Shown one piece after another: positions 2,419 through 63,703 of a stretch of DNA of 64,000 nucleotides. Each line of letters begins with the position of its first letter. Position 1 is the stretch's first letter. The position numbers and the translations under genes are program-made. This DNA is from Candidatus Poseidoniales archaeon (GTDB lineage: Archaea; Thermoplasmatota; Poseidoniia; Poseidoniales; Thalassarchaeaceae). The stretch lies in NCBI GenBank assembly GCA_028283505.1, contig JAPOFX010000001.1, positions 137,127-201,126 on the forward strand, written 5' to 3'. Below the pieces are notes generated by a model. The model did not search any database and was not told the origin of the DNA. It worked only from the letters and a program-made list of their open reading frames with translations.

Positions 2419-3420
2419 TCAGTTCTCGACCATCATCTTGACAGCATCTTCTGCCTCGATTCTTCCATCTAGAAGCTCCCCTAGGGCTCCTATGAAAGAA
2501 GTCCTTACGCCCAATTTTGGGGCCCTGGCCAGGAACATTCTGGTAGCCCTAACGCCCTCAGCCACCATGTGCATCTCATTCAGTGACTGGTCCAGACTCT
2601 TTCCGGATCCAAGCTTCTCCCCAAGGGTTCTATTCCTGCTCCGGGGGCTTGTCGCGGTGACATACAGATCCCCAAGTCCCGCTGGTCCAAATGCGGTGGT
2701 TCTGGACGCTCCCATTGCCTCCAAGAGGACCATTCCTTCGCTAAACCCCTTCAAAACCAGAGCCGCCTTGAGGTTATCTCCTCCAATAGAGTCTTTCAGC
2801 CCGTCTACCAATCCACACGCAAGGGCCACACAGTTCTTGTACGCGCCCCAAAGCTCTGCACCATTCGGGTCATCTGCTGGGAGAAGGAAGAGAGTCTCGG
2901 TGGAAAGCCTCTGGGAGATCCTTTCAGCGACTCCATGATCATGACATGCAACAATTGCTGTCGTAATGACTCCTCGAGCGACCTCTGGAGCTATGGTCGG
3001 CCCCGTCATCACAACCACAGGATTAGACTTCCCAGCTTCCTCCAACCTCCTTTCTATAGAATCAGAGATTAGCCCCGAACCCCCCTCATCTTCCGGCGCC
3101 AGTCCCTTTGCCAGATCTAGAATTACCTGAGACGGCCTCAAACTTGGTACAATCCTGTCCACGACCTCGAGAATCACACCGCTAGGGAGGGATAGCACGA
3201 GTATCTCGCAGGACTCGACAATATCAGAGAGCTCCATGGTGACCTGTAGCTCTGGTATCTCATGACCACTCAGGTATTTCTCGTTCACAGATTTCGTCAT
3301 CAACGACTCGTAAACCTCCTGCTCGATGGTCCAACCAAGGACATTGTGACCGTCCTCGCACCACACCTTGGCTAGAGCTGTACCCCAGTTGCCTAGTCCG
3401 ATAACCCCTATTCGTGCCAT
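2419..3420 (-). CDS. gpsA: NAD(P)H-dependent glycerol-3-phosphate dehydrogenase (bacterial GpsA type)
   Basis: Motifs seen: N-terminal Rossmann motif IGVIGLGNWGTALA, GPTIAPEVA, YKNCVALACGLVDGL, GLGDLYVTATSPRSRNRTLG and MVAEGV. The ATG at 3420 (MARIGVIG) is preferred over the TTG at 3435 used by the ORF track. Confidence 0.85.
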   Translation of the reverse strand: MARIGVIGLGNWGTALAKVWCEDGHNVLGWTIEQEVYESLMTKSVNEKYLSGHEIPELQVTMELSDIVESCEILVLSLPSGVILEVVDRIVPSLRPSQVILDLAKGLAPEDEGGSGLISDSIERRLEEAGKSNPVVVMTGPTIAPEVARGVITTAIVACHDHGVAERISQRLSTETLFLLPADDPNGAELWGAYKNCVALACGLVDGLKDSIGGDNLKAALVLKGFSEGMVLLEAMGASRTTAFGPAGLGDLYVTATSPRSRNRTLGEKLGSGKSLDQSLNEMHMVAEGVRATRMFLARAPKLGVRTSFIGALGELLDGRIEAEDAVKMMVEN

Positions 3421-3513
3421 GTGCTTCCGCCTCAAGAGGGGGTTAAGACCCTATTCAATGGTTACCCCCCCATACGTTGAGTTCTTGACTGATGAATGAC
3501 CCCGAGCAGCCAA

Positions 3514-3598
3514 GCAGGGGTACCCGAGTGGTCAAAGGGGCTGGGTTTAGGTCCCAGTGCGTAGTGCTTCGCAGGTTCAAATCCTGTCCCCTGCACCA
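3514..3598 (+). tRNA. tRNA-Leu (anticodon UAG), long variable arm, genomically encoded CCA
   Basis: Acceptor stem GCAGGGG/CCCCTGC (7 bp). Anticodon stem CTGGG/CCCAG with loop TTTAGGT (U33, anticodon TAG, purine 37). Long variable arm. T-loop TTCAAAT. Discriminator A followed by CCA. Confidence 0.9.
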
Positions 3599-3655: not shown

Positions 3656-6067
3656 ATGTCCAGACTAGATGTACTAACTGCCAGCCTGTTACTTATTGTA
3701 GCCTCTCTCTCGGGGTGTATCACCGAAGAACTGGTTGATGATATCCTCGGGTGCATGGATGAGAACGCTGCCAACTACGAAGAAAATGCCACTACTGAAT
3801 TAGTAGGTGACTGTATTTACATGGCCACTGCGGAGACTTTCATGGAAGCCATGACTGACGTAGGTAGCATCGAGGATATACTAGAAGACACTCCCAAGGC
3901 TGGATACTCTCAGTCGATTTCATCGAGCGAATGGAACCAGGATTTGGGGATGCAGATGGACGTCGAGATAGAGGACATCGTAATGGCGGATCTTAATACC
4001 GACTCAGTCTACGTTCACAACTCAATTTCGATTGCAGGGCTATTGCAAATTGAATACACTCATGTGCAGGTCGGCGAGGTTGTCAATATCCACCTGTTAA
4101 TGGGTGGAATGATGGCTCAAGGAGATGCAACACAATCCGTCTCCCAAACCCGTGATGCAACCCCCAATGTTTTGGAGGTAATAGCAGAACAGGCAGGACT
4201 CTTCACTGGCGAAGATGATGACGGGGAAGATGATGATGGACCAGTCGTATCTGATGGTATTCCAGAAGACGCAGTAATTACAATCACCATGAGCGATGAT
4301 ATGGAATCCCAGACCATGACAATGGAGTATACTGAGGATGGCGCTGAGATCACTACGACTATTCACATAGATCAGAATCAAGATCTTGTTTCCATGAGCG
4401 TGGAAAGCGACAATGGCTCTGCGACCTCATCACTAACGTATGAGGTGATGTGGGGAGATGCAATAGTCATCGAGGTGGATGACACACTTCCAAGAACCTC
4501 GATTCCAGTTTGGTTTGATTCTGAGATATTCAACGATGTCAACGACCACGATGACCACGGTGATGACGACTCAGAAGAGATGTTCCCATGCGATGGTGGG
4601 AATACGTGGATCCCTTGGGATTGGGTAAATGACGGCCATGAAGATTGCGAGGACGGTTCTGATGAGTACGACGATGATGGATCAGATTCCGATAACGGGC
4701 CAGAAATGTGGATGTGTGACAACGGCGAAGAAATACCTGGGGATTGGGTGAATGACGGCTATGAAGATTGCGAGGACGGTTCCGATGAGTACGACGATGA
4801 TGGACACGACGATTACACATTCTACTGCTCAAATGACGGTGAAGATTACGCTGAATCAATGGGGGGAATCCTGTGCCCTGAAGGGTCAGGAACAACTCCT
4901 GAATGTCCAAATGGAGAATCTTGTGTGTGCATTGATGTCGATGGTTCTTGTGACGACGGAGATGACGATTGGGGATATTACGCAGACGACGATGATGGAT
5001 CAGATTCCGATAACGGGCCGGAAATGTGGATGTGTGACAACGGCGAAGAAATACCTGGGGATTGGGTGAATGACGGCTATGAAGATTGCGAGGACGGTTC
5101 CGATGAGTACGACGATGATGGACACGACGATGACGATGGACCACCATCACCTGAGGATGTAATGTATATGACCGACTCAGATGGAGATGGCAACATGTCC
5201 CAAGAAGAGTTTGTTACATACTGGAACAATGAAAATCCGGACGCGCCGATAGACTCAGACCAATCCTTCCTAACAACTGAAGACGTAGAGGATTTGATCG
5301 AGTTGTGCGACTACGATGCTCCATCAGATCTCATTGATATCAATGAAATGCTGTGCTTCATCGATAACCTAGTCGGAATGATGCCTGATGATGAAAACAC
5401 CCTGAGTCTGGATGACTTTTTCAGTCACTTTGATACTGATGGTGACGGACATCTCACGGCAACTGAATTCATAGATGTCAACGATGTTCCCGATGACGAG
5501 CAGGACGATGTTCACGACATGTTTGACATGTATGACAATGATGATAGCGGTGGTCTAGATCATTCTGAATTCGAGCCTCTTTACGATATGATGGTGGACA
5601 GTGATCATGACGACAGTGATGATGATAGTGATGGTATGGAGCGAAATGACGCTACTGGATTTGTCGCGGACAATCAGACACTTAACGCTCCGATAACCGA
5701 CTTTGAAGTTCACTTCCTCAGCGACTGTGAGGAGGAGTATGACGAGGATGAGAATCAAATGGTTCAGCCGGATCTAAGTACCTGCACAAACGAATTCAGT
5801 ATCCCCCTAAACGGCGGAGACTCGGAAGGTGTTACGATTACTTACACTGACCACGATGGGGATGGCCTAGTCTCTCCTGGTGATGAGGTGTATGTCGAAT
5901 GGGGCGAATATGATGGCGAGGAGATTGACAAGATGGAGATTTACGATAACTGGGCTTCCCAGTATTCATCAGAATCATCAGCTAATCCGCCTGTATTGCC
6001 AGGATTCGGAGCTGTCTTGGGGGCAATAGCCCTCATCGGTGCCTCAATGGCATCCCGGAGAGATTAG
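3656..6067 (+). CDS. Hyper-acidic Ca-binding cell-surface protein: signal peptide with lipobox, three LDL-receptor-class-A-like modules, Cys-rich spacer, four EF-hand loops, PGF-CTERM anchor
   Basis: N-terminus MSRLDVLTASLLLIVASLSGC. Three copies of C-x13-DC-x-DGSDE (for example CDNGEEIPGDWVNDGYEDCEDGSDE). EF-hand loops DSDGDGNMSQEE, DTDGDGHLTATE, DNDDSGGLDHSE and DHDGDGLVSPGD. C-terminus PPVLPGFGAVLGAIALIGASMASRRD. Confidence 0.85.
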   Translation: MSRLDVLTASLLLIVASLSGCITEELVDDILGCMDENAANYEENATTELVGDCIYMATAETFMEAMTDVGSIEDILEDTPKAGYSQSISSSEWNQDLGMQMDVEIEDIVMADLNTDSVYVHNSISIAGLLQIEYTHVQVGEVVNIHLLMGGMMAQGDATQSVSQTRDATPNVLEVIAEQAGLFTGEDDDGEDDDGPVVSDGIPEDAVITITMSDDMESQTMTMEYTEDGAEITTTIHIDQNQDLVSMSVESDNGSATSSLTYEVMWGDAIVIEVDDTLPRTSIPVWFDSEIFNDVNDHDDHGDDDSEEMFPCDGGNTWIPWDWVNDGHEDCEDGSDEYDDDGSDSDNGPEMWMCDNGEEIPGDWVNDGYEDCEDGSDEYDDDGHDDYTFYCSNDGEDYAESMGGILCPEGSGTTPECPNGESCVCIDVDGSCDDGDDDWGYYADDDDGSDSDNGPEMWMCDNGEEIPGDWVNDGYEDCEDGSDEYDDDGHDDDDGPPSPEDVMYMTDSDGDGNMSQEEFVTYWNNENPDAPIDSDQSFLTTEDVEDLIELCDYDAPSDLIDINEMLCFIDNLVGMMPDDENTLSLDDFFSHFDTDGDGHLTATEFIDVNDVPDDEQDDVHDMFDMYDNDDSGGLDHSEFEPLYDMMVDSDHDDSDDDSDGMERNDATGFVADNQTLNAPITDFEVHFLSDCEEEYDEDENQMVQPDLSTCTNEFSIPLNGGDSEGVTITYTDHDGDGLVSPGDEVYVEWGEYDGEEIDKMEIYDNWASQYSSESSANPPVLPGFGAVLGAIALIGASMASRRD
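4670..4813. repeat. 144-bp direct repeat, copy 1 (encodes an LDLa-like module)
   Basis: gacgatgatggatcagattccgataacgggcc..gatggacacgacgat is identical to 4988..5131 except for one base (gggccA versus gggccG). Confidence 0.9.
4988..5131. repeat. 144-bp direct repeat, copy 2
   Basis: Near-perfect copy of 4670..4813, offset by 318 bp and in frame. A more diverged third copy lies at about 4589..4669. Confidence 0.9.
5990..6064 (+). other. PGF-CTERM archaeosortase-type sorting signal
   Basis: A Ser-rich linker (SSESSANPPVL) is followed by the PGF tripeptide, a hydrophobic helix (GAVLGAIALIGASMA) and a basic tail (SRRD) at the extreme C-terminus. Confidence 0.8.
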
Positions 6068-6129: not shown

Positions 6130-6831
6130 ATGCCACTCCTGTCAATGAATAATCTAAAGAGGCACTATGAAACTCCTGCGGGAACTGTGAAGGCCCTTGA
6201 TGGAATCAATATTCAGATAGACGAGGGAGAGAGGGTTCTTCTCTTGGGTCCCTCGGGATCAGGAAAGACCACTCTTCTGAACTGCCTATCGGCCTTGGAT
6301 AGTCCTACTGACGGCTCATACATTTTCATGGGGTCAGAAGTCCCTAGGGGCAACTCTGAGGAAATGACCTCATTCAGAAGGGAGAACATAGGATACGTGT
6401 TCCAGTTCTTCAACCTCCTCCAGGATCTTACGGTGATTGAGAACATTTCGCTCATTCAGGAGCTGGCTGGGAACAGGGACAAGTCTAGGGCGGAGGAACT
6501 GCTCAGATTAGTCGGGCTCCACTCCGAAAGGAATAGGTTCCCCGGAGAGATTAGCGGAGGGCAGCAACAGAGGGTTGCTATTGCCAGAAGTATAGCCAAG
6601 AGGCCTACTCTTCTCCTAGGCGACGAACTCACTGGGAATCTAGATTCTGAGACCTCCGACAAGGTGATGCAAGTTCTCGTTGAGGCCTGTGAGAAGGAGA
6701 ACATCACGGCTGTCCTGGTTACTCACGACGAATCTCTGATCGCATATGCAACCAGGGTTATCAGGATAGATAGTGGTCGGATAGTATCAGATGAAAAGAC
6801 AGTTTCAAGCGAGAAAGAGACCATTTCTTGA
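6130..6831 (+). CDS. ABC transporter ATP-binding protein, MacB/LolD type
   Basis: Walker A GPSGSGKTT, Q-loop region, signature ISGGQQQRVAIARS and Walker B LLLGDELTGNLD. Followed by an FtsX-type permease. Confidence 0.8.
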   Translation: MPLLSMNNLKRHYETPAGTVKALDGINIQIDEGERVLLLGPSGSGKTTLLNCLSALDSPTDGSYIFMGSEVPRGNSEEMTSFRRENIGYVFQFFNLLQDLTVIENISLIQELAGNRDKSRAEELLRLVGLHSERNRFPGEISGGQQQRVAIARSIAKRPTLLLGDELTGNLDSETSDKVMQVLVEACEKENITAVLVTHDESLIAYATRVIRIDSGRIVSDEKTVSSEKETIS

Positions 6832-6840
6832 GGTGGAATA

Positions 6841-9297
6841 ATGTTAGGCTCCTCCAATCTACTGAATAAGAGACTCGCAAGGAGTCTTTGGGGGACAAAA
6901 CTTCGACTTTCCGCTGTAATAGGCATGATCTTTGTTGGCGTTTTTGCAGGGATAACCTTTGGAGGATACTCAGCAAATTTAGGGCCGATGTACGACTCAA
7001 TCTATGAGGACAGTGATTCGGGAAGCAATCTAGCGGATATCTGGATTGATAATGAGAGCTCCATTTGGTCTGCTGATCAGGTTCAATCCCTCTGCTCAGA
7101 GATTGAGTCCTCATGGCCCGAGGGAGCTGAATCCCTGGATCAATGCGAGGGCAGGATCGTGATGAATGGTGCGATGTTCCACATGACTGACTCCGGTCAA
7201 AATGTGATTAATTCCGTATGGCACGGGATACCTCACGACTCCGATGTAGACAAGCCATGGTTCCCAGACGGACACTCCCAAGGTACGCCGGCTAAGGCAG
7301 AGGACGAGATAGTGATTGACGAGCATGTTAGGGAGGCGCTTTCTCTGAGCCTACAAGACGTAGTAACAATTGGGGTAGGGGAGGGAAGTATGAATTTCAC
7401 AATAGTTGGGTTCGCATACCATCCATTGCACATATACATGGCTCCAGAAGGATCTCTATTCCCCCCTGAATCAGGCGAGTTCGTCGTTGGCTACCTTTCC
7501 AGTTCTGGAATGGAGAGGCTTACGGGCTTGTCACAGGGATCTGCAAATACCATAGTTCTGGACATATCGGGTACTCCATCCTTCGACCTTTCTGACACTG
7601 AGGAGTATGAGGGCGAGGAGTTGGACGGAGTAAAGGAGGCTATCGCCAGTTCTATGGATGAAAATGGCATGGACGGACGAATAAGAGACAGGGGGCAGGT
7701 CGAGTCAGTAGAGCTCATGAGGTTAGATCTAGAGGGTACCAAGACTATGGCAGCCCCGTTTACTATCCTAATCCAACTGATCGCCGCCATAACAATCGCT
7801 CTTAGCTTACAGAGGCTGGTCCAGAGCCAGACTCGTGAGATAGCCATCCTCAGGACCCTTGGGTTACCTAGGAAATCGATAATGTCGGGGTATCTGATTG
7901 CTCCTTTGGTAATCGGTGGATTCGGCTGTCTAATAGGATCTATAGCCGGTCCATATGGTATGAACGGAATGCTCGATTTCTATGAGGGAATAGTGGGGGT
8001 TCCAATAATTGAGAGAGAAATACCCAGTGAAATATACCTCTCAACCACGGGCATCACCATGTCAATAGTTATCATTTCTGGGGTCTATCCCGCGTGGAAG
8101 GCGACTAGAATAGATCCCCTGAAGGCTCTCGGTGGGAGCTCTGAAATCAGAGTTGGATCAAACTATCTGCAGACACTAACCAGCTGGATGCCTACCCTAC
8201 TGGGGCTCTCAGTTCGCTCGAGCCTCAGAAAGCCAGCGAGACTAGGGATGACATTCCTTGCTGTAGGAATATCTCTGATGCTGGCGGGTTCGATTCAGAT
8301 GATGACTGTCGCATTGAATGATACCATAGTAGGGGGTTTGAGGGAAGGCCAAACCTGGGATGCACAGGTTTTCGTCCAACCCGGCGGGGAGTCCGAAGTA
8401 GTAGAGTGGGCAATTGATAGAGGCGCCTCATATGAGATAGTTATCGAGGCCCCAGTCGGAACCCTAATTGACCCTTCAGAACTACAGAGAAGCTTCGTTT
8501 TAGTGGGACTGGGGGGTTATGGAGATGGCGAATCAATGAGGCAGACGGAAATTATTGACGGTTCAGAACCAGCTGCAAATACTACCATAACAGAGGTCAT
8601 GATGGACGAGGGGTCATTACAAATGATTGGCTGGGAAGTGGGGGACAGACAATCGGTATCAATATCTGGTAACGAATTGGAGGTAGATATTGTGGGATCT
8701 GTGAGAGGAGAGATTTCTAGAACCATGTTCTTCCACCAGACAGACTTGGCAGGGATAATTGGATTCAACGCTACAGCAGTATACCTTGATTTCCCAGAGG
8801 GGGTTTCCGTTGATGAGGAGCTCGGGAAATTATCCAGTGGAATTCAAGAGAGGGAATCACTTCTTAGAGGGATCGAATCTCTACTCGATCAACAAACCCA
8901 AGTTTTGGGTACGATAATGGTATTGGGATTCATATTCACTCTAGCTGTCATGTTCAATACTATGGTTATGAATCTCGCTGAGAGGGATCTCGAATTGGCT
9001 ACTCTGAGGGTGTTAGGGGCATCTACTGGAAGCCTTTCAGTAATGCTTCTCTTCGAAAGTACCATTATTGGTTTGATAGGGGGCCTGTTTGGTGTGATCT
9101 TCGCCTTCGGTGGCGCTATAGGTCTGGCGGCCGAATTCTCAACATGGCAATTCTACTTCCCAGTGGTCCTAGTCCCGAACGTCGCTTTCCAGCTCATTTC
9201 AGTGGTATTACTGATTTCTGTAGCAATGGTACCAGTTGGAATCGTTAGGCTCAGAAACATGGATCTCGTCGAGAAAGTCAAAGACCTGTCCCAATAA
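6841..9297 (+). CDS. ABC transporter permease with two FtsX/MacB-like modules and large extracytoplasmic domains
   Basis: 818 aa. There are two blocks of four TM helices, each preceded by a large hydrophilic domain. FtsX-like patterns EIAILRTLGLPRKSI and ELATLRVLGASTGSL. Confidence 0.7.
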   Translation: MLGSSNLLNKRLARSLWGTKLRLSAVIGMIFVGVFAGITFGGYSANLGPMYDSIYEDSDSGSNLADIWIDNESSIWSADQVQSLCSEIESSWPEGAESLDQCEGRIVMNGAMFHMTDSGQNVINSVWHGIPHDSDVDKPWFPDGHSQGTPAKAEDEIVIDEHVREALSLSLQDVVTIGVGEGSMNFTIVGFAYHPLHIYMAPEGSLFPPESGEFVVGYLSSSGMERLTGLSQGSANTIVLDISGTPSFDLSDTEEYEGEELDGVKEAIASSMDENGMDGRIRDRGQVESVELMRLDLEGTKTMAAPFTILIQLIAAITIALSLQRLVQSQTREIAILRTLGLPRKSIMSGYLIAPLVIGGFGCLIGSIAGPYGMNGMLDFYEGIVGVPIIEREIPSEIYLSTTGITMSIVIISGVYPAWKATRIDPLKALGGSSEIRVGSNYLQTLTSWMPTLLGLSVRSSLRKPARLGMTFLAVGISLMLAGSIQMMTVALNDTIVGGLREGQTWDAQVFVQPGGESEVVEWAIDRGASYEIVIEAPVGTLIDPSELQRSFVLVGLGGYGDGESMRQTEIIDGSEPAANTTITEVMMDEGSLQMIGWEVGDRQSVSISGNELEVDIVGSVRGEISRTMFFHQTDLAGIIGFNATAVYLDFPEGVSVDEELGKLSSGIQERESLLRGIESLLDQQTQVLGTIMVLGFIFTLAVMFNTMVMNLAERDLELATLRVLGASTGSLSVMLLFESTIIGLIGGLFGVIFAFGGAIGLAAEFSTWQFYFPVVLVPNVAFQLISVVLLISVAMVPVGIVRLRNMDLVEKVKDLSQ

Positions 9298-9306
9298 CGG
9301 CGATAC

Positions 9307-10089
9307 ATGCGAGTAGTTACTTGGAACCTGAACGGAATCAGGGCCGCCCATAGAAAAGGACTCTACAATTTCATAGATAGGATAGATGCCGATGTGATGC
9401 TATTCCAAGAGGTCAGGGCCCTGCCAGAACAAATGCCGAAGGATTGGAAGGAGCCAGAAGGGTACGATGTCATTTGGCATCCCGCGCAGAAGAAAGGGTA
9501 TTCAGGCGTGATGTCCTGTTCGAGGGTCGGCATGGAAGAGATTGGCAGGGGAATCGACACTGACTTAGATGAGACAAGGGACCCCGAGGGAAGGGTTTTG
9601 CATACAAAGCACAATGGAATGCATTGTGTGAACATCTATCTCCCAAATGGCAGTTCAAGAGATCAAAGGCAAGCTTACAAGGATCAATGGATCGAGGATT
9701 TGATGGAGTGGGCAGAAATGTTCGTGGGTTCGGAAGAGCCAGCAATTCTTTGTGGAGATCTGAATATTGCCCATACCGAGGATGACATATGGGATCCAAA
9801 AGGGAATAAGAGGTCATCCGGATTCCTTGAGCATGAGAGGGAGTGGTTCACAAGACTTCTGGATAGGGGATGGCATGACTTGCTCAGAATCCACATAGGG
9901 TCACAAAAAGGGCCTTACACATGGTGGTCAAATTTCAGAAGAGCCAGGGAGAGAGACAGGGGTTGGAGAATTGATTATGTCCTTGCGAATGATGTAGCGA
10001 GGTCTATGATGAAATCAGCTGAAGTCATGAGGGAAGGTGGAATGGTTGTTTCAGATCATGCACCTGTCATTGTCGACTTCGATATTTAG
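9307..10089 (+). CDS. xth: Exodeoxyribonuclease III / AP endonuclease
   Basis: N-terminus MRVVTWNLNGIRAA, plus LFQEV, ILCGDLNIAH, GWRIDYVL and the C-terminal SDHAPV motif of the EEP (ExoIII) family. Confidence 0.85.
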   Translation: MRVVTWNLNGIRAAHRKGLYNFIDRIDADVMLFQEVRALPEQMPKDWKEPEGYDVIWHPAQKKGYSGVMSCSRVGMEEIGRGIDTDLDETRDPEGRVLHTKHNGMHCVNIYLPNGSSRDQRQAYKDQWIEDLMEWAEMFVGSEEPAILCGDLNIAHTEDDIWDPKGNKRSSGFLEHEREWFTRLLDRGWHDLLRIHIGSQKGPYTWWSNFRRARERDRGWRIDYVLANDVARSMMKSAEVMREGGMVVSDHAPVIVDFDI

Positions 10090-10161
10090 GCCCGATAGTT
10101 CTGTTTAACGGCTATATGGCCCCAAGCCACCATTCAAGAGGTGAAGCGTCGGCGAACAATC

Positions 10162-10935
10162 ATGGCGAATACGCTGGAAGAGAGGCTTGAGAGAATCCTT
10201 CCAGGTGGAAAGGGCGTCTGGATACCAATGGATCACGGGGCATCCGGCTTTCCCGTCGACGGACTTACGGATACCGAATTCGTGATCGATTCAGTGATCA
10301 GAGGCGGTGCCGATGCTATCGTATTGCAAAAGGGTCTTCTCAGCTATCACCATTCTAGGAATGGCTGGGATGGATATGTTTGCCACGTCTCAGTCTCCAC
10401 CATTCACGGAGGGGGAAGATCCCAAGACAAGGTTTCCGTGGCAACAGCTTCAGAAGCACTCCTCCGGGGTGCGAGCGGAGTTTCAGCTCAAGTGAACTTG
10501 GGCGATAATTACGAGCCGGAGATGATACAGAGGCTCGGTGAATTATCCAGGCAAGCATATTCGGAAGGATTGCCCGTCCTTGGCATGGTATATCCGAGAG
10601 GCCCTAATCTTGTTATCGAGGAAGGCGACTCAACAAGGGGTGTGGCTCACGCTGCAAGAATCGCATGGGAACTAGGGTGCCATGTGGTAAAGGTCCCATG
10701 GACAGGTTCTCCAGAGTCCTTCTCCGAGGTTGTCGAGGCAGTGCCTATCCCGGTTCTACTGGCAGGCGGAGAAAAAAAAGGTGATTTCAGCGAAACCCTA
10801 TCCATTGTCAGGGAGGCTGTGGGTGTCGGCTGCTCAGGTATTTGCTTCGGTAGACAGATTTTCGGCTCGAAAGATCCAGAGTTGTGCGTAAAGGCCCTGA
10901 GGGAAATTGTTCATGCTGGCGAGAATACACTCTGA
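10162..10935 (+). CDS. aroA': 2-amino-3,7-dideoxy-D-threo-hept-6-ulosonate synthase (AroA', class I aldolase DhnA family)
   Basis: DhnA-type class I aldolase pattern (IPMDHG, candidate Schiff-base Lys in HVVKVPW, LLAGGEK). It lies directly upstream of dehydroquinate synthase II. The ATG at 10162 is preferred over the GTG at 10141. Confidence 0.65.
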   Translation: MANTLEERLERILPGGKGVWIPMDHGASGFPVDGLTDTEFVIDSVIRGGADAIVLQKGLLSYHHSRNGWDGYVCHVSVSTIHGGGRSQDKVSVATASEALLRGASGVSAQVNLGDNYEPEMIQRLGELSRQAYSEGLPVLGMVYPRGPNLVIEEGDSTRGVAHAARIAWELGCHVVKVPWTGSPESFSEVVEAVPIPVLLAGGEKKGDFSETLSIVREAVGVGCSGICFGRQIFGSKDPELCVKALREIVHAGENTL

Positions 10936-10947
10936 TGAGGTGGCGTA

Positions 10948-11895
10948 ATGGAGTTATGGTTGGATGCGGAGATGTATGGGGGCCCCACCCAAGATACAGA
11001 CGGGGTAAGAGTTTGGGATGGATCTAGCTCGGATGTCGCGATGGTGGACATAACGGATGCTAGAGCGCAAAAAGAAGCCATTTCCCTGATAGGGAGTGTT
11101 CCTTGGATATTGATAAGGTGTAAAGACTGGAAGATGATACCACTTGAAAATTTAGTAGCATCTTCTAGAGGAAGCGGGACCAAATTAGCCATTGCAGTCT
11201 CAAAGAAAGTTGAACTGCAGGGGGTGGCATTCGCACTCCAACATGGAGTTGATGCCGTGGCTCTCCCACCAGAAAATAAATTCCCGGATCTCTGGTCAGT
11301 TGCAAGATCAATTGTGAGAGATAATGGAAATGGAAGCTCCGATGTGGACCCCCCTTCTCTGTCTTATGCCAGAATTACATCTGTAACTGAAGGAGGAATA
11401 GGAGAAAGGGCCTGCGTCGACCTTACGGAGAGGCTACTGGAGGGCGAAGGTATCGTAGCCGGATCAATTTCTTCTTGCCTCGGTATGATTCACGGAGAGA
11501 CGATCCCCTCCCAGTATGTCCCAACTAGGCCATTCAGGATCAACGCTGGGGCTTTACACTCTTATGTCATAATGGGTGATGGAACAACGAAGTACCTCAG
11601 CGAATTAGAATCTGGAGATCGGGTTTCTATCTTCTCTGTGGACGGTTCAATCAGAGAAGCGACCATTGGGAGGCTTAAAATCGAAAGAAGACCACTGCTA
11701 AAGATATCCTTTGAATCAGGGGAGTTTACCGGTCATGTGATGGTCCAGCAAGCCGAGACAGTACGCCTTGTTTCGAGTGATTCGAAACCAATCTCAGTGA
11801 CGGATATCTCTCAAGGCGATGAAATCATTGTAGTCATTGACAACAGCATGCGTCACATAGGTAGTGCAGTACCAGGGGAGGTCAGAGAATTATGA
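10948..11895 (+). CDS. aroB': 3-dehydroquinate synthase II (archaeal AroB')
   Basis: Conserved block RITSVTEGGIGERACVDL..GEGIVAGS..YVPTRPFRINAGALHSYV..TKYLSELESGD..IGRLKIERRPLL, typical of the archaeal DHQ synthase II family. Confidence 0.8.
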   Translation: MELWLDAEMYGGPTQDTDGVRVWDGSSSDVAMVDITDARAQKEAISLIGSVPWILIRCKDWKMIPLENLVASSRGSGTKLAIAVSKKVELQGVAFALQHGVDAVALPPENKFPDLWSVARSIVRDNGNGSSDVDPPSLSYARITSVTEGGIGERACVDLTERLLEGEGIVAGSISSCLGMIHGETIPSQYVPTRPFRINAGALHSYVIMGDGTTKYLSELESGDRVSIFSVDGSIREATIGRLKIERRPLLKISFESGEFTGHVMVQQAETVRLVSSDSKPISVTDISQGDEIIVVIDNSMRHIGSAVPGEVREL

Positions 11896-12746
11896 CAATT
11901 CTAGGTACAGGTGAGGCATTTGGAGCAATTTCAATTCTTCATGCATTGGGTACAGGAAAGGGTTGCTCAATCCCCGTCGAACTCCCAATTAGAGTCAATA
12001 TCCATGATTTTGAAATGAGAAATGATAATGATAAGCACGGAATTTTATCCATAATCTCATCAATTTGGGGTGAGAAGGGATACCCGGTTCCACCTGTCAT
12101 AGGCTGGGAGGTGATTAGCGAAATCCCCATTGGCCAGGGCCTAAAGTCTAGCTCAGCTCTTTCCTGTGCAGCAATCAAGGCACTCGATAAGGCATCTTGG
12201 ACGTGCCTTTCGGATTATGAGATAGTTGACTTAGCTGTGGAGGCGCAGAGGAGATCAGGTTGCACAATTTCCGGAAGTATGGACGATACATGGGCTACGC
12301 TAACTCCTGGATGGAAAGCAGTGGACTCCTCAAAACCTCCTGAAGACTCGATTCTCTTTGAAGGAGACATAGAGCCCGGATTTTCAGTCCTAATTGGGCT
12401 GAGGGGTTCAAGGAACAGTGATATTATAATCGAGTCATTTTACAAAAACTCGCATATCTTTGATAGAGCGCTCGCATCATTGATCAACGGATCCATACTG
12501 GATTCACTATCCTCAAATGGAATGGCTGTGGCTTCTTCTACGGAAGACTTCGAAGCACTGAGGATCAGTAATCTGATGATAGCCTCTGGTGCTGTGGCCG
12601 CTGGTATAAGTGGCTCTGGACCTGCTATTGCTGTAGTCTGCTATGCCTCGGACTCTGAACACATCAGGGGAAAACTTTCCGAGCTGTGCGATGAGGTAAT
12701 ATCAACTCAGTTCTTGTTATCCGAAGAGCTAGTCGAGGAGGCATAA
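11892..12746 (+). CDS. aroK: Shikimate kinase, archaeal GHMP-kinase type
   Basis: GHMP motif PIGQGLKSSSALSCAA. Length of about 280 aa. 4-nt overlap with aroB' and located next to aroC. Confidence 0.7.
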   Translation: MTILGTGEAFGAISILHALGTGKGCSIPVELPIRVNIHDFEMRNDNDKHGILSIISSIWGEKGYPVPPVIGWEVISEIPIGQGLKSSSALSCAAIKALDKASWTCLSDYEIVDLAVEAQRRSGCTISGSMDDTWATLTPGWKAVDSSKPPEDSILFEGDIEPGFSVLIGLRGSRNSDIIIESFYKNSHIFDRALASLINGSILDSLSSNGMAVASSTEDFEALRISNLMIASGAVAAGISGSGPAIAVVCYASDSEHIRGKLSELCDEVISTQFLLSEELVEEA

Positions 12747-12747
12747 C

Positions 12748-13848
12748 ATGGGAATGGGTCTCGGTGAAAACCTCAAGGTTACAATTTTTGGCGAGAGTCA
12801 TGGAAAGTGTGTGGGGGCATTGATTGAGGGGATCCCTCCCGGTACTCCAATAGATCCAGAAACCCTACTTCAGGATCTGCAGAGAAGGAAGCCCGGTAGG
12901 AAGGGGATGTCTCAGCGTTCTGAGGATGATCGATGTGAGATTATGTCAGGAGTCTTTGACGGAAAGGCTACTGGTTGGCCAATATTGATGCTTACTATGA
13001 ACTCAGATGCCAAATCGAAAGATTACTCATTCCTGCCCGATCATCCCCGTCCAGGGCATGCCGATTTGGTCGAGTCCGTTAGGTCCCAGGGTTCCGCCGA
13101 TCTGAGAGGGGGCGGCTCTCAGTCAGCTAGGCTAACATTCGGTCTGGTCGCTGCTGGAAGCCAAGTCAGATCTATTCTGGATAAGGTTGGATGGTCATGC
13201 CATGCTCACTTGCATAGTGTAGGGAACATTCAGTCAAAGCCACTTTTCGAATTAGACAGAAATAAAGAATTTGACCCAGGATCAGATTCAGGGAGACTGA
13301 ATTGTAGGGATCATGAAGCCGCAATTTTGATGTCACGTGAGATCGAGAAAGTCAGAAAAGAGAGGGATACCATAGGATCCGTGGTTGAGTTATTGGTAGA
13401 AGGTCTACCAATAGGGGTTGGGGAACCGTGGTTTGATGGCATTGAACCGTCCTTGGCGAGAGCACTCATGGCTATACCAGGTGCGAGGGCAGTGGAATTT
13501 TCTCATGGAGTAAAATCCTCTACAATGAGGGGGAGTGAGCATAATGACTCTTGGTTGCCCGGAACAGACTACCCAATTCTTGATGGCGCGTCCGAGGGAA
13601 CCGCCGACGGCTCATTGGGAGGGCGCTCAACTGGTGCTCCAATCTCAGTGAAGGTCCATTTTAAGCCACCAAGTAGCCTTCCCCAGAAGCAGTTCACATT
13701 GCACCTGCCCTCGAATCAACGTCAATACCTCGAAGTCGGAGGAAGGCATGATCCTGTGTTGGGTCCCAGGGCCGCGCCTGTAGTAGAAGCAGTTTCCATG
13801 CTCGTTATGGCGGATTTAGGAATAGCCGGAGGTTTCATTTCAGGCTAA
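12748..13848 (+). CDS. aroC: Chorismate synthase
   Basis: N-terminus LKVTIFGESHGKCVGALIEGIPPG, plus LQRRKPGR, RPGHAD and GGRHDP motifs. Confidence 0.85.
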   Translation: MGMGLGENLKVTIFGESHGKCVGALIEGIPPGTPIDPETLLQDLQRRKPGRKGMSQRSEDDRCEIMSGVFDGKATGWPILMLTMNSDAKSKDYSFLPDHPRPGHADLVESVRSQGSADLRGGGSQSARLTFGLVAAGSQVRSILDKVGWSCHAHLHSVGNIQSKPLFELDRNKEFDPGSDSGRLNCRDHEAAILMSREIEKVRKERDTIGSVVELLVEGLPIGVGEPWFDGIEPSLARALMAIPGARAVEFSHGVKSSTMRGSEHNDSWLPGTDYPILDGASEGTADGSLGGRSTGAPISVKVHFKPPSSLPQKQFTLHLPSNQRQYLEVGGRHDPVLGPRAAPVVEAVSMLVMADLGIAGGFISG

Positions 13849-14786
13849 GCGTTTCTTTCTCTCATCTGCTGAATCCTCAGGGGGAGATTTACTCCGAACA
13901 TTATTGCAATTATCAGGAATACAATTGCAGTTCCGAGGGCTACTCCATACACACTTGTCAACTCAACGGATTCCCTGAGCCTCTCTGAAGCGACATCTGA
14001 ACTACCGTCAAAGATATCGACAATCGCCGGAATTATGAGATTTATGAGTAGAGTCATCAGAGCTACCACTCCCGCAATAACTGGAGCAATTGCAAGTGAT
14101 GTATGGTATCTTCTGGTTATCTTGTTTACACCCATTACGTATACCTCATTCATCCTGATTGACGTATCTAACATAGAGAACCTGATTACCCCACTTGTCA
14201 GTTCAATGTACATCACTAGGAAGACCGCATACAGAATCAGGATGAACTTCTGAGCAATCTCGCCTTCTGGAAGGAAATCGAACCTGAATTCCACTGTACT
14301 TCCCGCAAACCTAACTGTTACCAGTATCAAAGCAACATAAGAAATTAGGATTGCCCTCCTATCCCTCTGGAAAATCCCGTAGGCGCCTCCAACCAGGCCT
14401 ATGACTATCAAGGAGAGATGGAATAGTCCAGCCAGTGAAGCTAATCCAAGAATATTAGAGATCGCGAACCAGGCAGTCCCAGAGACTGGGGTTATAGCTA
14501 AAGTGAGGAATGATAAAATCACCAAGGATGAAACAGCTCCCACCTGTAGTGATGAGACCATTCTGTCAGCAGGCAGGAACTTCTGTTTAGAAACGACAGG
14601 TCCACCGAAAAAAGACTCGATAAAGCTCGGGACATGTATCTCAGGTATAGCATCCTTTGGTATCTCGGTACTCGACTTCAGCCTACCTGCCGCCTTCTTC
14701 CTGCTGGGTGCTGAGGACCTCACGGTCTTTCCTTCGTAGAGATGGGAGGTATCTCCTCCCCCGTCTACCTTTACCTTGTCAGCCAT
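13845..14786 (-). CDS. Polytopic membrane protein, last gene of the MoxR/DUF58 module
   Basis: 313 aa. A basic cytoplasmic N-terminus is followed by about 6-7 hydrophobic helices. It starts 12 nt after the DUF58 gene on the same strand. Its 3' end overlaps the convergent aroC by 4 nt. Confidence 0.6.
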   Translation of the reverse strand: MADKVKVDGGGDTSHLYEGKTVRSSAPSRKKAAGRLKSSTEIPKDAIPEIHVPSFIESFFGGPVVSKQKFLPADRMVSSLQVGAVSSLVILSFLTLAITPVSGTAWFAISNILGLASLAGLFHLSLIVIGLVGGAYGIFQRDRRAILISYVALILVTVRFAGSTVEFRFDFLPEGEIAQKFILILYAVFLVMYIELTSGVIRFSMLDTSIRMNEVYVMGVNKITRRYHTSLAIAPVIAGVVALMTLLINLIIPAIVDIFDGSSDVASERLRESVELTSVYGVALGTAIVFLIIAIMFGVNLPLRIQQMRERNA

Positions 14787-30277: not shown

Positions 30278-31198
30278 TTAGAGGTAGAGGTATGCCATGT
30301 AGAAAAAATATCCAGCAACCATGGCTAAACCCGTCCTTCGACCGATTTCCCTACCGTTCAAAAGCATCGCAGCAATTGCACCGGAGGTAAGAAGCATGAC
30401 CCATATGTCCCTCTCAGCAAAATCAGGATTTATCGAGATCCCTCCTCCTATTATCGCGGTTGCTCCTAAAATCCCCAAGATATTCATCATGTTGGATCCA
30501 AGTACGTTACCTACTGCAACACCTCCTTGCCCCCTTATTCCTGCCACTATAGTTACCGCCAATTCAGGTAGGGAGGTCCCTAGCGCTACGACCGATAGTC
30601 CAATCACCGCTTCCGATATACCCATATCCGAAGCAATTCCTGTAGCACCTTGAATCAAGAACTCCGCCCCTTTCCAAATAAATAATCCGCCAACTATGGT
30701 CACTATCGTCGCTAATGATATCTTATTCGGCACCCAACTTTCCTCTATTTCGATATCATCATCCGACTTTAGGTATGAATAGCCGTAGTATCCAACCAAA
30801 CAAACTAACATCGAAGCGCCGAATATTTGGTCGATAGAGCCCAAAACAACGGCGCCTAGGAGGGCGAAGGAGGCCATCATCATGGCCTTTGCATCTCTCC
30901 TTACACCAATCCCCGGGTCACTAGCCGCTCCGAGCATTGATGCTGTACCCAGGACTAACATTACATTGGCAACGTTAGATCCCATCACCCCTCCAACAGC
31001 CAGATCAGGTTGACCTCCTGCCACAGCTTCGAGTGAGACCGCTAATTCTGGGAGGGATGTCCCGATAGCCACAACGGTGAATCCAATAAGCAAGGGAGGT
31101 ACCCTCATCCTTCCGGCAATCACTACTGCCCCTTGAACAATGATCTCTCCTCCTGCCATTAGAAGAATGAACCCCCCTATCACCAGAAGCCAGTCCAT
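30278..31198 (-). CDS. Ca2+/cation antiporter (CaCA family, YrbG-like)
   Basis: Two alpha-repeats GTSLPELAVS and GTSLPELAVT in a roughly 10-TM protein. Confidence 0.8.
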   Translation of the reverse strand: MDWLLVIGGFILLMAGGEIIVQGAVVIAGRMRVPPLLIGFTVVAIGTSLPELAVSLEAVAGGQPDLAVGGVMGSNVANVMLVLGTASMLGAASDPGIGVRRDAKAMMMASFALLGAVVLGSIDQIFGASMLVCLVGYYGYSYLKSDDDIEIEESWVPNKISLATIVTIVGGLFIWKGAEFLIQGATGIASDMGISEAVIGLSVVALGTSLPELAVTIVAGIRGQGGVAVGNVLGSNMMNILGILGATAIIGGGISINPDFAERDIWVMLLTSGAIAAMLLNGREIGRRTGLAMVAGYFFYMAYLYL

Positions 31199-38743: not shown

Positions 38744-41700
38744 ATGGCGGGACGCAGGGCGACGGTGGTCTCGTTAATCGTTCTGCTAATGTTAGTCCCA
38801 ATGGCGTCCTCAAATCTTCATCCTTCTTTTAACAAGAAAGGAGGCCAAGACGCGGACGGCGTTTGGACATCCAGCGCAGAGTTAGATCTCCATTCCGGGT
38901 GGTGGGAGCATTGGAGTAGGGACAGAGATAGAAACTCCCTAGATGATAGACTGGAGTGGATCCTTGAACAGCAAGAGGACTTCCAGAAAGATTGGTGGAA
39001 GAGAGCTGACACCGGTTTCGCAAGGGTAATTGTAGATTATAATCACCACCCATCTGATGCGGATGTTTCGGCGCTAGAAGGATTAGGTGTGGAAGTCACA
39101 TTCCGCCCGAAATATTTGGATTCAGTAATAGCAACAGCTCCCATCCAATCAATCACCTCCTCAGAAGGCATCCGTTCGCTCACTGGGGTTGTGATGATAG
39201 AGGATTTGGGATTAGCAGAACCCCACATGGCCGAGGCCATCCCAAACATGGGGGTAGATCTTGTCTGGAACGATTTTGGTTTTGATGGAACCGGCTCCGT
39301 AGTAGCTGTTCTGGACACGGGAGTCAGAGGAGACCACGAGGGCTTGAACGATATGGATGATGAGCCATTTACAACAGGTTGCGAGCAACCTAGCCCGGAT
39401 CCTCTGGACCCGAACCCGATCTTCGTCGATTGCGATCCAAAGATTATAGCATTCTATGACGCAGTCTTGATGGACGCAGAACAAGATCCATCGTCATCTT
39501 ATGATTCTGGCACCCATGGAACACACGTAGCCGGGATTGCTGCTGGAACTGGAGGAGGGCAAGCAGACCCTTCAACCGGTCAGAGGCATGTTGGAGCTGC
39601 CCCCGGGGCCTTTTTGATCAATATCTTGGCGTGTTGTGACGGGGATATCGAGGATGTAATTCAAGGCGCACAATGGGCAATCGAAAACAAAGACAAGTAC
39701 GGTATCGACATTTTGACCTCATCTCTCGGGGAACAACAACTAGAAGTCCATTTTGACAATGATGGAAGCTCAGCATGGAGTAGGCAGATGGACGCAGTGG
39801 TGGAGGCAGGGATAATTACAACTCTGTCTGCCGGGAATGAGTTTGGGGGAGCCACTTTTGCTGGCTGCAATACAATAGACAGCCCTGGTGATGCCCAACT
39901 TCCGGTTACTGTAGCCAGCCTGGATAAGGATCTAGGACTAGCAATATACAGTAGTAGAGGATACACTTCAGATGGCAGGGTGAAGCCCGATGTGGCTACA
40001 ATCGGATCGAACATCATGGCTCCTGATGCCGCAACAAGTGATGGCTACACGTCAAAGTCAGGAACTAGCATGGCAACCCCACTGATGGCGGGAATTGCCG
40101 CGCTGATGGTTGAAGCTAATCCTGATATCACTCCCGCTGAATTCAAAGATATCATATCTGCACACTCAATTGAGAGAGACCTGCAACTCTTGGATGATCC
40201 GGGTTTTAACGACTGCAGTCTCTTGGAGACACGTCCAGATAACGAGTTCGGATATGGTCAGGCAGACCCAATAGCTTTCGTAGAAGCCGCTGGTAGTATT
40301 GACAGGACACTGAATGTTTCGATGAATCTCGAGACCCTGCAGGAGATTGGAAACCAGTCATATGTCTCTGGTACAGCCTCTGGAGTTGCTCCCGGAATGG
40401 GCATCGTAGAAGTAAGAGTGGGAGGAGGGGATTGGAAAGGAGCCGCCGACATAAAGGGAGATTGGAGTGAATGGAGAGTAAAGCTTGATCCCCATTTAGA
40501 ATCTGGAAATTCTACGATTTATGCCAGACTTGTAGTTTCAGAGGACAGTATTTCGCCAGTAGACGCAAGGAGGGTCATCTTGGTAGATGGAGATGCTTCT
40601 GATGCGATGTCGGGAGATTTTATGCAATTCGGACTCTCTGTATTCTTGTTCCCATTTTTGTGTGCCGTAGCACTAATTTCATTCGTTGCTCTCAGGGAAA
40701 GGTGGGACAAGAAGATCGACCTCTCGACAAAGAGCTCTGATTCAACGTCTAAGTTTAGGAAAACTCTAGAAGCTGTTAATCCCCTTCACTATCCAGGTTA
40801 TCTTGGATCAGCTGTTGAGTCTTGGAAAGGAGGGAAGTCACTTACCGAGAACCAATTCAGAAGGTATGTCTCACTTTCTATCCTGTACACTGCTCAAGGA
40901 CTTCCACAGGGATTCACCTACGTGGCGTTTCCTGCATTCCTGGCTGTTAACGATGTCAGTCCAGTCGCCATAGCACAACTCTGGGCAGCAATAGCATTGC
41001 CATGGACATTCAAATTTGTATGGGGCCCGATGGTGGACGGTATTCAAGCTCCTGACTACGGTAGAAGGAGGCCATGGATTTTATTTGCACAGACAGGCAT
41101 GGTGGTAACACTAGGGTCCTTGCTCTTTGTTTCCGATTTGGCTCAATCCATACAATTAGTAACTTTGATGCTTTTCATCCACAATCTCTTCTCATCTTTA
41201 CAAGATGTGGGTGTCGACGCACTAGCTGTAGACGTATTACAGCCAGACGAAGTTGCCAAGGCGAATGGATTCATGTTTGCCGCCAAGAGAGCGGGATACA
41301 TCCTTGGTGGAGCGATACTTGGAATAATGGCCACTAAATTTGGCATCAAATCAGCCATAGTGATTCAACTCCCATTGTTAGTAATTATCATGGCACTCCC
41401 ATTGTTCCTAAGAGAGAGGCCAGGAGACAAGCTCTTCCCATGGAGTGCCGCGCGAAGATCCAGCCTTTGGGATGCTCAAGAACAGAATTCTGATGAGAAT
41501 GAAGATGAAAGCTCGGACAATACTGTGTTAGAGATTCCATGGATGGAAAATGGGGAAGAAGATCCCTACAGAGCTGCAAATTGGACCGCAAGGAACTTAA
41601 TCTCAAGAAAAATCACTCTCCCTGCGGCTGTCCTTTGGGTATCAATTGTGCTTATTCTTCTGGGGATGGTAGTTTATATCGGAGGTGTGTTACTTGAGGA

Positions 41701-54452: not shown

Positions 54453-54502
54453 ACATCCTCTGTGGAGAAGGGGCAAATCAATGTGACTATCGACTGAGCT
54501 AA

Positions 54503-63613: not shown

Positions 63614-63703
63614 GATATCCCGACGGAATGATATGACTTCAACCCAACTATGCAGGAGCATTGAGTGCGAAGTGCGAAATAGCACTATTTCTGCCCAGCC
63701 ACC

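Follow-up and report, generated by a model that had tools for sequence, protein, structure and literature searches.

What would a marine archaeon do with a surface protein that combines modules resembling an animal receptor repeat, EF-hands, and a predicted lipid anchor at either end? This question is raised by a gene in a stretch of 64,000 nucleotides (nt) of DNA from Candidatus Poseidoniales archaeon (Thalassarchaeaceae; assembly GCA_028283505.1, contig JAPOFX010000001.1, positions 137,127-201,126 of the forward strand). The whole stretch is hereafter called the window, and coordinates are positions within it. The complete open reading frame (ORF) of the gene is present exactly as a preliminary description of this DNA had stated (Table 1). 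On balance, its product is probably a calcium-stabilized, variable envelope lipoprotein of the Thalassarchaeaceae, one allele of a family-specific set, the core of which may bind hydrophobic ligands. The observation made in the preliminary description was confirmed, and its interpretation was partly supported.

Each component of the protein is of a known kind. What is new is an archaeal two-Cys variant of the low-density lipoprotein receptor class A (LDLa) repeat, together with the series of six-, four-, and two-Cys forms to which it belongs, and the conserved pairing of a lipobox with a PGF-CTERM signal. Also new are an unannotated N-domain, whose predicted LolA-type fold is moderately supported, and the cassette behavior of the middle of the protein. 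Literature searches returned no paper on the protein family or on LDLa repeats in archaea. The sole mention found is a passing remark that calcium-binding domains occur among the modules of MGIIa-specific and MGIIb-specific protein families (PMC9258230).

Table 1. Positions of the family gene, the parts of its product, and the adjoining genes in the window
Feature	Position	Strand	Remarks
GpsA, bacterial-type NAD(P)H-dependent glycerol-3-phosphate dehydrogenase	2419-3435	-	270 bits, above the NCBIfam subfamily cut-off
tRNA-Leu, anticodon TAG	3514-3598	+	ARAGORN; 57 nt upstream of the family gene
TATA-box-like element TTTGATAAA	3624-3632	+	24-32 nt before the ATG
Family gene, complete ORF	3656-6067	+	803 amino acids (aa) and stop codon
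Signal peptide with lipobox LSGC (aa 18-21)	3656-3718	+	Cys21 is the predicted lipidated N-terminus
2-Cys motif CMDENAANYEENATTELVGDC	3752-3814	+	CxDxxAxN[YF]..AT..C, with conserved N-A-T sequon
N-domain (aa 56-290, ~235 aa)	3821-4525	+	11 predicted beta strands and helices; predicted LolA/ependymin-like curved sheet
Hypervariable cassette zone (aa 291-494)	4526-5137	+	Acidic linkers, three LDLa-like modules, one six-Cys module
LDLa-like module 1 (aa 309-337)	4580-4666	+	2 Cys; Pfam; own HMM 22.7 bits
LDLa-like module 2 (aa 351-378)	4706-4789	+	2 Cys; best Pfam stretch 352-378; own HMM 25.0 bits
Six-Cys module CSNDGEDYAESMGGILCPEGSGTTPECPNGESCVCIDVDGSC (aa 391-432)	4826-4951	+	Nearly unchanged in divergent alleles P0122 and P0132
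LDLa-like module 3 (aa 457-484)	5024-5107	+	Recent copy of module 2; own HMM 25.0 bits
Calmodulin-like region, four EF-hands in two pairs	5138-5605	+	Pfam EF-hand_1, _5, _6, and _7 above cut-offs
Canonical 12-residue EF-hand loop (aa 507-518)	5174-5209	+
13-residue EF-hand loop DYDAPSDLIDINE (aa 552-564)	5309-5347	+	Flanked by Cys551 and Cys567
Canonical 12-residue EF-hand loop (aa 593-604)	5432-5467	+
Canonical 12-residue EF-hand loop (aa 627-638)	5534-5569	+
C-domain (aa 664-781, ~115 aa)	5645-5998	+	Cys691-Cys710 pair, conserved N-Q-T sequon, loop DHDGDGLVSPGD
PGF-CTERM sorting signal PPVLPGFGAVLGAIALIGASMASRRD	5999-6064	+	PPVLPGFG, hydrophobic helix, SRRD
ABC ATPase, LolD/MacB type	6130-6831	+	Pfam ABC_tran; best NCBIfam match LolD, below equivalog cut-off
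Permease, 818 aa, two FtsX domains (MacB/LolCE/ADOP type)	6841-9297	+	Pfam FtsX, two stretches

Predicted anchors on a hyper-acidic protein

The protein had been called hyper-acidic, and its composition bears this out. Asp accounts for 18.4% and Glu for 9.8% of all residues (28.3% combined), against 1.0% for Lys and Arg together, and the net charge is approximately -219. The excess of acidic over basic residues amounts to 0.27, compared with 0.13 in the next most acidic long ORF of the window. There are eight Lys and Arg residues in total (R3, K81, R166, R280, R663, K759, R801, and R802), and all of them except R3, which is part of the signal peptide, occupy alignment columns that are invariant or nearly so.

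The view that this is a secreted archaeal protein with anchoring signals also held, with a lipobox at one end and a PGF-CTERM motif at the other. At the N-terminus, a basic n-region and then a hydrophobic core lie ahead of LSGC, which fits the pattern [LVI][ASTVI][GAS]C. The lipobox assignment made earlier is reinforced by 18 diverse family members (30-70% identical), in all of which Gly20 and Cys21 are invariant. Of the 16 family ORFs listed at the related loci, including the present one, 11 have a lipobox, and the remainder include fragments and ORFs with miscalled starts. Experiments in Haloferax have shown that archaeal lipoboxes are lipidated through AliA and AliB (PMC12462473).

At the C-terminus, the PGF motif is preceded by a Ser-rich stretch. 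This end had been described as a textbook PGF-CTERM signal, a claim that stands for the motif, the hydrophobic helix, and the basic tail, and that does not stand for the profile scores, which are weighed below. In the distant homolog L014, the Pfam PGF-CTERM score is 24.1 bits against a cut-off of 18.8; matches with E<=0.01 were obtained for 10 of the 18 diverse members, and every complete family ORF of the related loci has a PGF tail. The motif, helix, basic tail, and family-wide conservation are shared with PGF-CTERM substrates of archaeosortase A. The difference is the pairing with an invariant N-terminal lipobox, and no description of a family with such dual signals was found in the literature. 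By analogy with the Haloferax AliA/AliB pathway and the archaeosortase A pathway, lipid anchoring is predicted at both ends of the protein.

More than 1,261 homologs were found in public data, and the named ones all come from Thalassarchaeaceae (MGIIb) or from Thermoplasmatota metagenome-assembled genomes. Judged by these names, the family appears to be confined to Thalassarchaeaceae, one of the two families of Marine Group II (MGII). The closest homolog, 99% identical, is located on a contig of 1.44 Mb. The preliminary description had allowed for the contig being a eukaryote/archaeon chimera at this gene, a possibility that was examined without any sign of such a join. The contig can be considered free of chimerism because archaeal genes (TBP and type II dehydroquinate synthase) are found within the window, the G+C content is even along it, and the Asp codon usage of the family gene is that of the neighboring genes. 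The occurrence of near-identical copies on MGII contigs of approximately 1.4-1.5 Mb likewise rules out a chimera.

A constrained frame and a variable middle

The lipobox, the 2-Cys motif, the N-domain, the C-domain, and the PGF-CTERM tail are constant across the family and are conserved down to 30% identity. Among 45 close homologs, hardly any variation is seen in residues 22-305, 492-660, and 660-803, and the stretch between approximately residues 305 and 492 varies in its modules. Module content differs even among alleles that are otherwise approximately 90% identical. An allele may have no LDLa-like module or as many as seven or more, and among the 18 diverse members LDLa matches occur in 11 and EF-hand matches in 12. 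By this pattern of sequence conservation, the N-domain and the C-domain are the conserved core of the protein, to which the calcium modules do not belong.

The six-Cys module that separates LDLa-like modules 2 and 3 had been regarded as an epidermal growth factor (EGF)-like spacer. Its six Cys residues include a C-x-C, and on inspection they do not fit PROSITE-type EGF spacing. For aa 391-432, no EGF family matched at E<=10, and there was no other Pfam match. The EGF label is thus left without profile support, and the module is one of several cassettes. Alternative cassettes are carried by homologs P0096, P0115, P0043, P0059, and P0139. They include a Trp/Cys-rich module with the pattern YCEWEG...WWYYCE.HD.DW.CTDD.GQ, a CQGSTCGDDGCGGSCGTCG module (a Cys module of the CGGSCG type), and an insert rich in His that follows the EF-hands. 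The cassette zone of P0139 contains a complete SBP_bac_3 solute-binding domain.

Comparison of the family gene with its flanks indicates that more than the middle is mobile. At loci L012 and L013, the flanks are 72-94% identical to those in the window (GpsA 86-87%, FtsX 89-92%, and a phosphatase-family gene 91%), whereas the N-domain of the family protein is only 46-49% identical. The mismatch is reversed at L001 and L002, where the flanks are 43-75% identical (FtsX 43-45%) and the N-domain and C-domain reach 83-84% and 86%, respectively. Therefore, alleles have been exchanged between lineages, and such exchange, combined with a variable middle, is typical of exposed surface proteins.

Most of the loci examined have one family gene, and one locus has two tandem copies. 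These paralogs are found in L008 at 9902-12397 and 12410-14614, and the N-domain of the second copy is 43% identical to that in the window. In the public assembly of L013, runs of N at approximately 11700-12500 lie exactly over the LDLa-like repeats of the family gene. Repeats of this kind appear to break short-read assemblies, and as a consequence module counts taken from metagenome-assembled genomes may be unreliable.

The strongest of the alternative explanations, albeit still an improbable one, draws on this same variability. The protein could be a major and abundant protein of the surface coat or S-layer type, or a variable antigen of the virus-receptor type, that is crosslinked by calcium or magnesium, anchored through its PGF-CTERM signal, and diversified under pressure from viruses or grazers. 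PGF-CTERM signals serve as the anchors of haloarchaeal S-layer glycoproteins (PMC8875312). The extreme acidity, the conserved N-x-T sequons, the exchange of alleles between lineages, the tandem paralogs at one locus, the conserved promoter-like element, and the adjoining tRNA gene are all compatible with such a role. However, the Pfam scan detected none of the immunoglobulin-like or other beta-sandwich domains that would form a lattice, and the low-confidence model of the full-length protein consists largely of small modules and disordered acidic linkers. A scan of viral contigs found no homolog, which is weak as evidence. Moreover, a coat-like role overlaps in part with the favored reading of the protein as a calcium-stabilized, variable envelope lipoprotein and does not exclude it.

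LDLa-like modules with two cysteines

The canonical LDLa repeat has six Cys residues, which form three disulfides (C1-C3, C2-C5, and C4-C6). Three LDLa-like modules, each with two of the six canonical Cys, had been recognized in the present protein, and the profile searches agree. Pfam Ldl_recept_a (PF00057) matches three stretches with a score of 38.2 bits (cut-off 24.1), and a hidden Markov model (HMM) trained on 30 LDLa modules of the six-Cys type yields 43.7 bits for the whole protein. Because an Asp-rich composition alone might produce an LDLa match, the same HMM was run on 1000 composition-matched shuffles of the whole protein, the best of which scored 5.2 bits. The three modules must not be counted as independent evidence, since modules 2 and 3 are parts of a direct repeat of 149 nt (4668-4816 and 4986-5134, 99% identical) and module 1 is 93% identical to both over 72 nt.

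When aligned with solved repeats of LRP2 and VLDLR, the two Cys of each module correspond to Cys2 and Cys5 of the LDLa repeat. Trp or Glu stands in place of Cys3 and Asn in place of Cys4, and Cys1 and Cys6 have no counterparts, which confirms the retention of two of the six Cys. The spacing between the two is C-x16/17-D-C, and the C-x13-DC given initially is incorrect. In all three modules, the Trp and every acidic calcium ligand (W..DG..DC.DGSDE) are retained, and these residues are nearly invariant across the family. Moreover, all 55 distinct LDLa-like modules of the family have exactly two Cys.

The modules therefore share much with the LDLa repeats of LDLR, VLDLR, LRP2, and the glucosidase II beta subunit. 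They have the calcium-cage sequence W-x-x-D-G-x-x-D-C-x-D-G-S-D-E, with F-x-C and I-P before the cage, they align in register with the solved repeats and score above the Pfam gathering threshold, and their Cys2-Cys5 pair is a native LDLa disulfide. They differ in that the six-Cys pattern is reduced to the equivalents of C2 and C5, the N-terminal lobe is shortened, and the host is an archaeon.

The occurrence of such a module in an archaeon had been considered unusual, a view that is not borne out, since the 2-Cys form is common in other MGII proteins. A search with a segment of seven tandem LDLa-like modules found 257 proteins. The 118 listed matches other than the source protein of the query were sorted by the Cys present at positions C2-C6, with C1 left out. 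Two Cys (C2 and C5) are present in 25 proteins, whose named sources are all MGII archaea, including Poseidoniaceae. Four Cys (C2, C4, C5, and C6) are present in 84 proteins, whose named sources are Myxococcales and other bacteria. At least five Cys, occupying all five scored positions, are present in 7 proteins, the six named ones being from animals, and the remaining 2 proteins have other patterns. The calcium-cage residues are the same in the 2-, 4-, and 6-Cys classes. Among the matches listed, 7 of the 25 2-Cys proteins have PGF-type tails. Some MGII proteins are named 'low-density lipoprotein receptor class A repeat-containing protein' by NCBI. Across these matches, the 2-Cys module is a standard building block of MGII secreted proteins.

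Repeats of the LDL receptor bind Lys/Arg-rich ligands via an acidic ring and a Trp residue. A second alternative is accordingly a ligand-capture or adhesion scaffold, in which the LDLa-like cages would bind Lys/Arg-rich proteins or particles and thereby feed a protein-degrading lifestyle. The ligand-binding Trp and the acidic residues of the LDLa repeat are retained in the modules, and the near absence of Lys and Arg (only eight in 803 aa, at nearly invariant columns) would prevent the protein from binding itself. One allele has an SBP_bac_3 domain, which is of the amino-acid type, in its cassette zone, and secreted subtilases are encoded within the window. However, some alleles that have no LDLa-like module keep the rest of the protein along with its low Lys/Arg content, and this explanation seems somewhat less probable again than a surface coat.

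EF-hands and the role of calcium

Returning to the favored reading, in which calcium stabilizes a variable lipoprotein, the other calcium-binding part of the protein is its calmodulin-like region. The EF-hand match reported earlier was recovered with Pfam (EF-hand_1, 42.4 bits against a cut-off of 25.4; EF-hand_7, 35.8 against 30), and phmmer returned calmodulin matches over aa 580-672. Four EF-hand loops had been proposed, and the three canonical ones are sound, with ligands at positions 1, 3, 5, and 12, Gly at position 6, and a hydrophobic residue at position 8. The last of the proposed loops, DHDGDGLVSPGD (5849-5884, aa 732-743), is part of the C-domain. Position 12 of this loop is Asp, a low-confidence model places the loop between beta strands, and its listing as a fourth EF-hand was wrong in detail. 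The count of four nonetheless stands, because the real fourth EF-hand is the 13-residue loop DYDAPSDLIDINE, which had been overlooked. The corresponding position holds a canonical 12-residue loop in other alleles. An AlphaFold2 model of the full-length protein, made with the 45 close homologs, places helices on both sides of all four loops. Its pLDDT (predicted local distance difference test) is only 35, and it was used for secondary-structure hints only.

The region is calmodulin-like in that 12-residue loops in a predicted helix-loop-helix setting are arranged in two pairs, the sequence is Met-rich, and the Pfam thresholds are exceeded. Unlike calmodulin, it is predicted to be extracellular within a lipoprotein, and one of its loops has 13 residues between two Cys. 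Also, the number of EF-hands depends on the allele, with 6 of the 18 diverse members having no match.

Seawater contains approximately 10 mM calcium. Sites exposed to it would always be occupied, and a structural role for calcium is therefore indicated in place of storage or sensing. High-capacity calcium binding as the purpose of the protein, as first proposed, is thus doubtful. The least likely explanation, a high-capacity calcium store, buffer, or sensor that perhaps acts with the CaCA antiporter, can point to about eight predicted specific calcium sites, long poly-Asp/Glu tracts, and a Na/Ca exchanger gene in the window (30278-31198), yet it is hardly credible given that saturated extracellular sites could neither buffer nor sense, that calcium-module content is dispensable and not conserved between alleles, and that the CaCA gene is on the minus strand, 24 kb from the family gene, and is not within the related loci examined (approximately 10 kb on either side of the family gene). 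The antiporter reported in the preliminary description is real and unlinked, and a functional connection with it is rejected on the same grounds of distance, strand, and absence from the related loci.

The conserved core

Among the constant parts, the 2-Cys motif has invariant columns at C33, D35, A38, N40, A45, T46, and C53 in the 18 members, and it has no Pfam match within the family protein. Unrelated marine metagenome proteins (P0171-P0180) have three to six matched stretches per protein with the pattern GC[MT]DxxAxN[YF]xxxAT...C. Further copies in tandem arrangement are visible in them by eye, and the family protein has a single copy.

The N-domain has a Met content of 6.4%, compared with 2.7% in neighboring genes. 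Its acidic loop at approximately aa 183-205 is a hot spot for insertions, and only 60 representative clusters of the domain were found among 1.84 billion proteins. AlphaFold2, when given an alignment of 13 sequences, produced a model with 11 strands (pLDDT 69.5, predicted template-modeling score 0.65). A Foldseek search of the PDB with this model matched LolA (from three species), EPDR1, VioE, MucB, SAOUHSC_02783, and DUF1329, such that the top matches come almost exclusively from the LolA superfamily (E 7e-5 to 1e-3, probability approximately 1). A LolA-type fold had been suspected from the full-length model, in which helices are followed by two blocks of five strands. Overall, the assignment of a LolA/ependymin-type fold to the N-domain is moderately supported by the predicted structure.

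Members of the LolA superfamily, which includes uncharacterized archaeal clades, are united by the binding of hydrophobic ligands in a curved sheet (PMC6363788). The N-domain resembles the LolA/LolB/LprG/RseB/EPDR1 group in its predicted 11 antiparallel strands with helices, and LolA, EPDR1, VioE, and MucB are among its top structural matches. LprG and LppX are themselves lipoproteins, as the protein that bears the N-domain is predicted to be. Furthermore, the family gene adjoins genes for a LolD/LolCE-like ABC transporter. In contrast to this superfamily, however, the N-domain has no detectable sequence similarity to its members and shares its polypeptide with a long stalk of calcium-binding modules and with a second anchor. 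The organism is an archaeon and has no outer membrane that could serve as the target of LolA-like delivery, and the linkage to the ABC transporter is not universal.

The C-domain alignment has as invariants A-P-x-x-D-F, two Cys, Y-x-D-x-D-x-D-G-x-x-S-x-G-D, and D-x-W. Its profile finds only weak similarity in the PDB, to EF-hand and dockerin loops. Tails that resemble this domain occur in other MGII proteins with PGF-CTERM signals.

Genomic context

The most conserved feature of the gene context is a tRNA-Leu gene. It immediately precedes the family gene, in the same orientation, in 14 of 14 related loci, two of which belong to a different genomic site. Its anticodon is TAG at the GpsA/ABC locus, where a second tRNA-Leu (CAG) is sometimes found, and GAG at L014 and L015. 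Leu codon usage was considered as the cause of this linkage and rejected, as the share of CTA is 27% versus 15% elsewhere but just 41 Leu codons are involved. In L010, the tRNA and the family gene are 1.3 kb apart. The ORF in this interval, judged by eye, resembles an M28-type peptidase and is not an integrase, which gives no indication of an integrated element.

A motif of the form (T/G)TT(G/C)ATAA(A/G) is located at the same distance from the start codon in most of the related loci inspected. This conserved TATA-like sequence suggests transcription of the family gene from a promoter of its own, into a leaderless mRNA. The GpsA gene is divergently oriented upstream and is syntenic in those related loci at the same genomic site that reach far enough in this direction.

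Downstream on the same strand, the ABC ATPase gene follows the family gene after 62 nt, and the permease gene follows the ATPase gene after 9 nt. The NCBIfam lolCE, ADOP, and YbbP matches of the double-FtsX permease are all below cut-off. These ABC genes are syntenic in 10 of 10 related loci at the same site that extend far enough downstream. The permease falls into two allele classes (89-92% versus 42-46% identity), which track the absence and presence, respectively, of a gene of approximately 700 aa with a PF06695 match.

Several other genes of the window deserve mention. The two multi-pass membrane ORFs of the window that lacked another identification were considered as archaeosortase candidates and set aside, as NCBIfam assigns one to an arsenic-efflux protein and leaves the other unassigned. 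A 1271-aa ORF at 38744-42559 (+) joins a subtilase domain (Peptidase_S8, aa 182-505) to a major-facilitator transporter domain (MFS_1, aa 712-1025), which, provided that the ORF is real, would be an uncommon fusion. Other large acidic ORFs are located at 61064-63862 (-) and 50889-54506 (-), one of which has lamin-tail and amidohydrolase domains and the other CARDB and PKD domains.

Proposed organization of the protein

In the favored reading, the protein would be exported and then lipidated at Cys21 of the lipobox, and its PGF-CTERM signal would be cleaved and replaced by a lipid link at the C-terminus. Both ends would thus be held on the membrane, with approximately 760 residues looped outside the cell. 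The functional constants would be the Met-rich N-domain, situated near the membrane, and the small C-domain. Between them would run a hyper-acidic stalk composed of the 2-Cys LDLa-like cages and the calmodulin-like unit of four EF-hands. Calcium would serve neither storage nor sensing there, and would instead support the folding and rigidity of modules in which only one of the three LDLa disulfides is left. The stalk would also be the exposed part and a zone of recombining cassettes, with a length and content that depend on the strain, and whole alleles would move between lineages. Less certain are two further steps, in which the curved sheet of the N-domain might bind a lipid, a lipid tail, or another hydrophobic ligand, and the domain might cooperate with the downstream MacB/Lol-type ABC transporter.

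Several points weigh against parts of this reading. With regard to anchoring, the PGF-CTERM scores of the present protein are just under the Pfam cut-off (17.8 versus 18.8 bits) and well under that of TIGR04126 (11.3 versus 24.5). Archaeosortase A, AliA, and AliB were not found within the 64-kb window, and the literature searches yielded no paper documenting an archaeosortase in Poseidoniales. With regard to the N-domain, the Foldseek TM-scores are low (0.2-0.38, with a root-mean-square deviation of approximately 10 A), and the fold assignment is graded as moderate only for this reason. Across 13 N-domains, no Pfam family of the LolA type matched at E<=10, a threshold at which the scan gave nothing but noise, and the N-domain profile matched no sequence in the PDB. 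Double anchoring also excludes LolA-like shuttling. Finally, in most of the loci where the ABC genes are syntenic, a gene for a membrane protein of approximately 700 aa separates them from the family gene. At the second type of locus, represented by L014 and L015 (Thalassarchaeaceae), the neighbors are EamA, MOSC, DDAH, and M28 genes, and the ABC genes are not adjacent. Thus, the linkage may be plain synteny, and the connection with the ABC transporter is suggestive, not established.

A bolder extension must be regarded as speculative. The family gene, the LolD-like ATPase, and the double-FtsX permease might together constitute a system of the archaeal envelope that handles lipids or proteins anchored by lipids. 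A lipoprotein with a LolA fold, kept at a distance from the membrane by a calcium-stiffened and doubly anchored stalk, would receive hydrophobic cargo from the MacB/Lol-type transporter. In view of the bacterial-type GpsA gene just upstream, unusual membranes are suspected in this organism.

Implications

If the predicted signals are used as proposed, a family that combines a lipobox with a PGF-CTERM signal would be a useful test substrate for two archaeal lipid-anchoring pathways. The LDLa-like modules form a natural series, in which animal forms have six Cys, those of marine bacteria four, and those of MGII archaea two, and throughout which the calcium cage is untouched. This series makes it testable how far the LDLa fold depends on calcium rather than on disulfides, and it also bears on the origin of the LDLa module.

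The archaea of MGII are uncultured, and their cell envelope is known from sequence alone. A protein with strongly constrained ends and a highly variable middle is a good candidate for a component of this envelope that meets viruses, grazers, and substrates.

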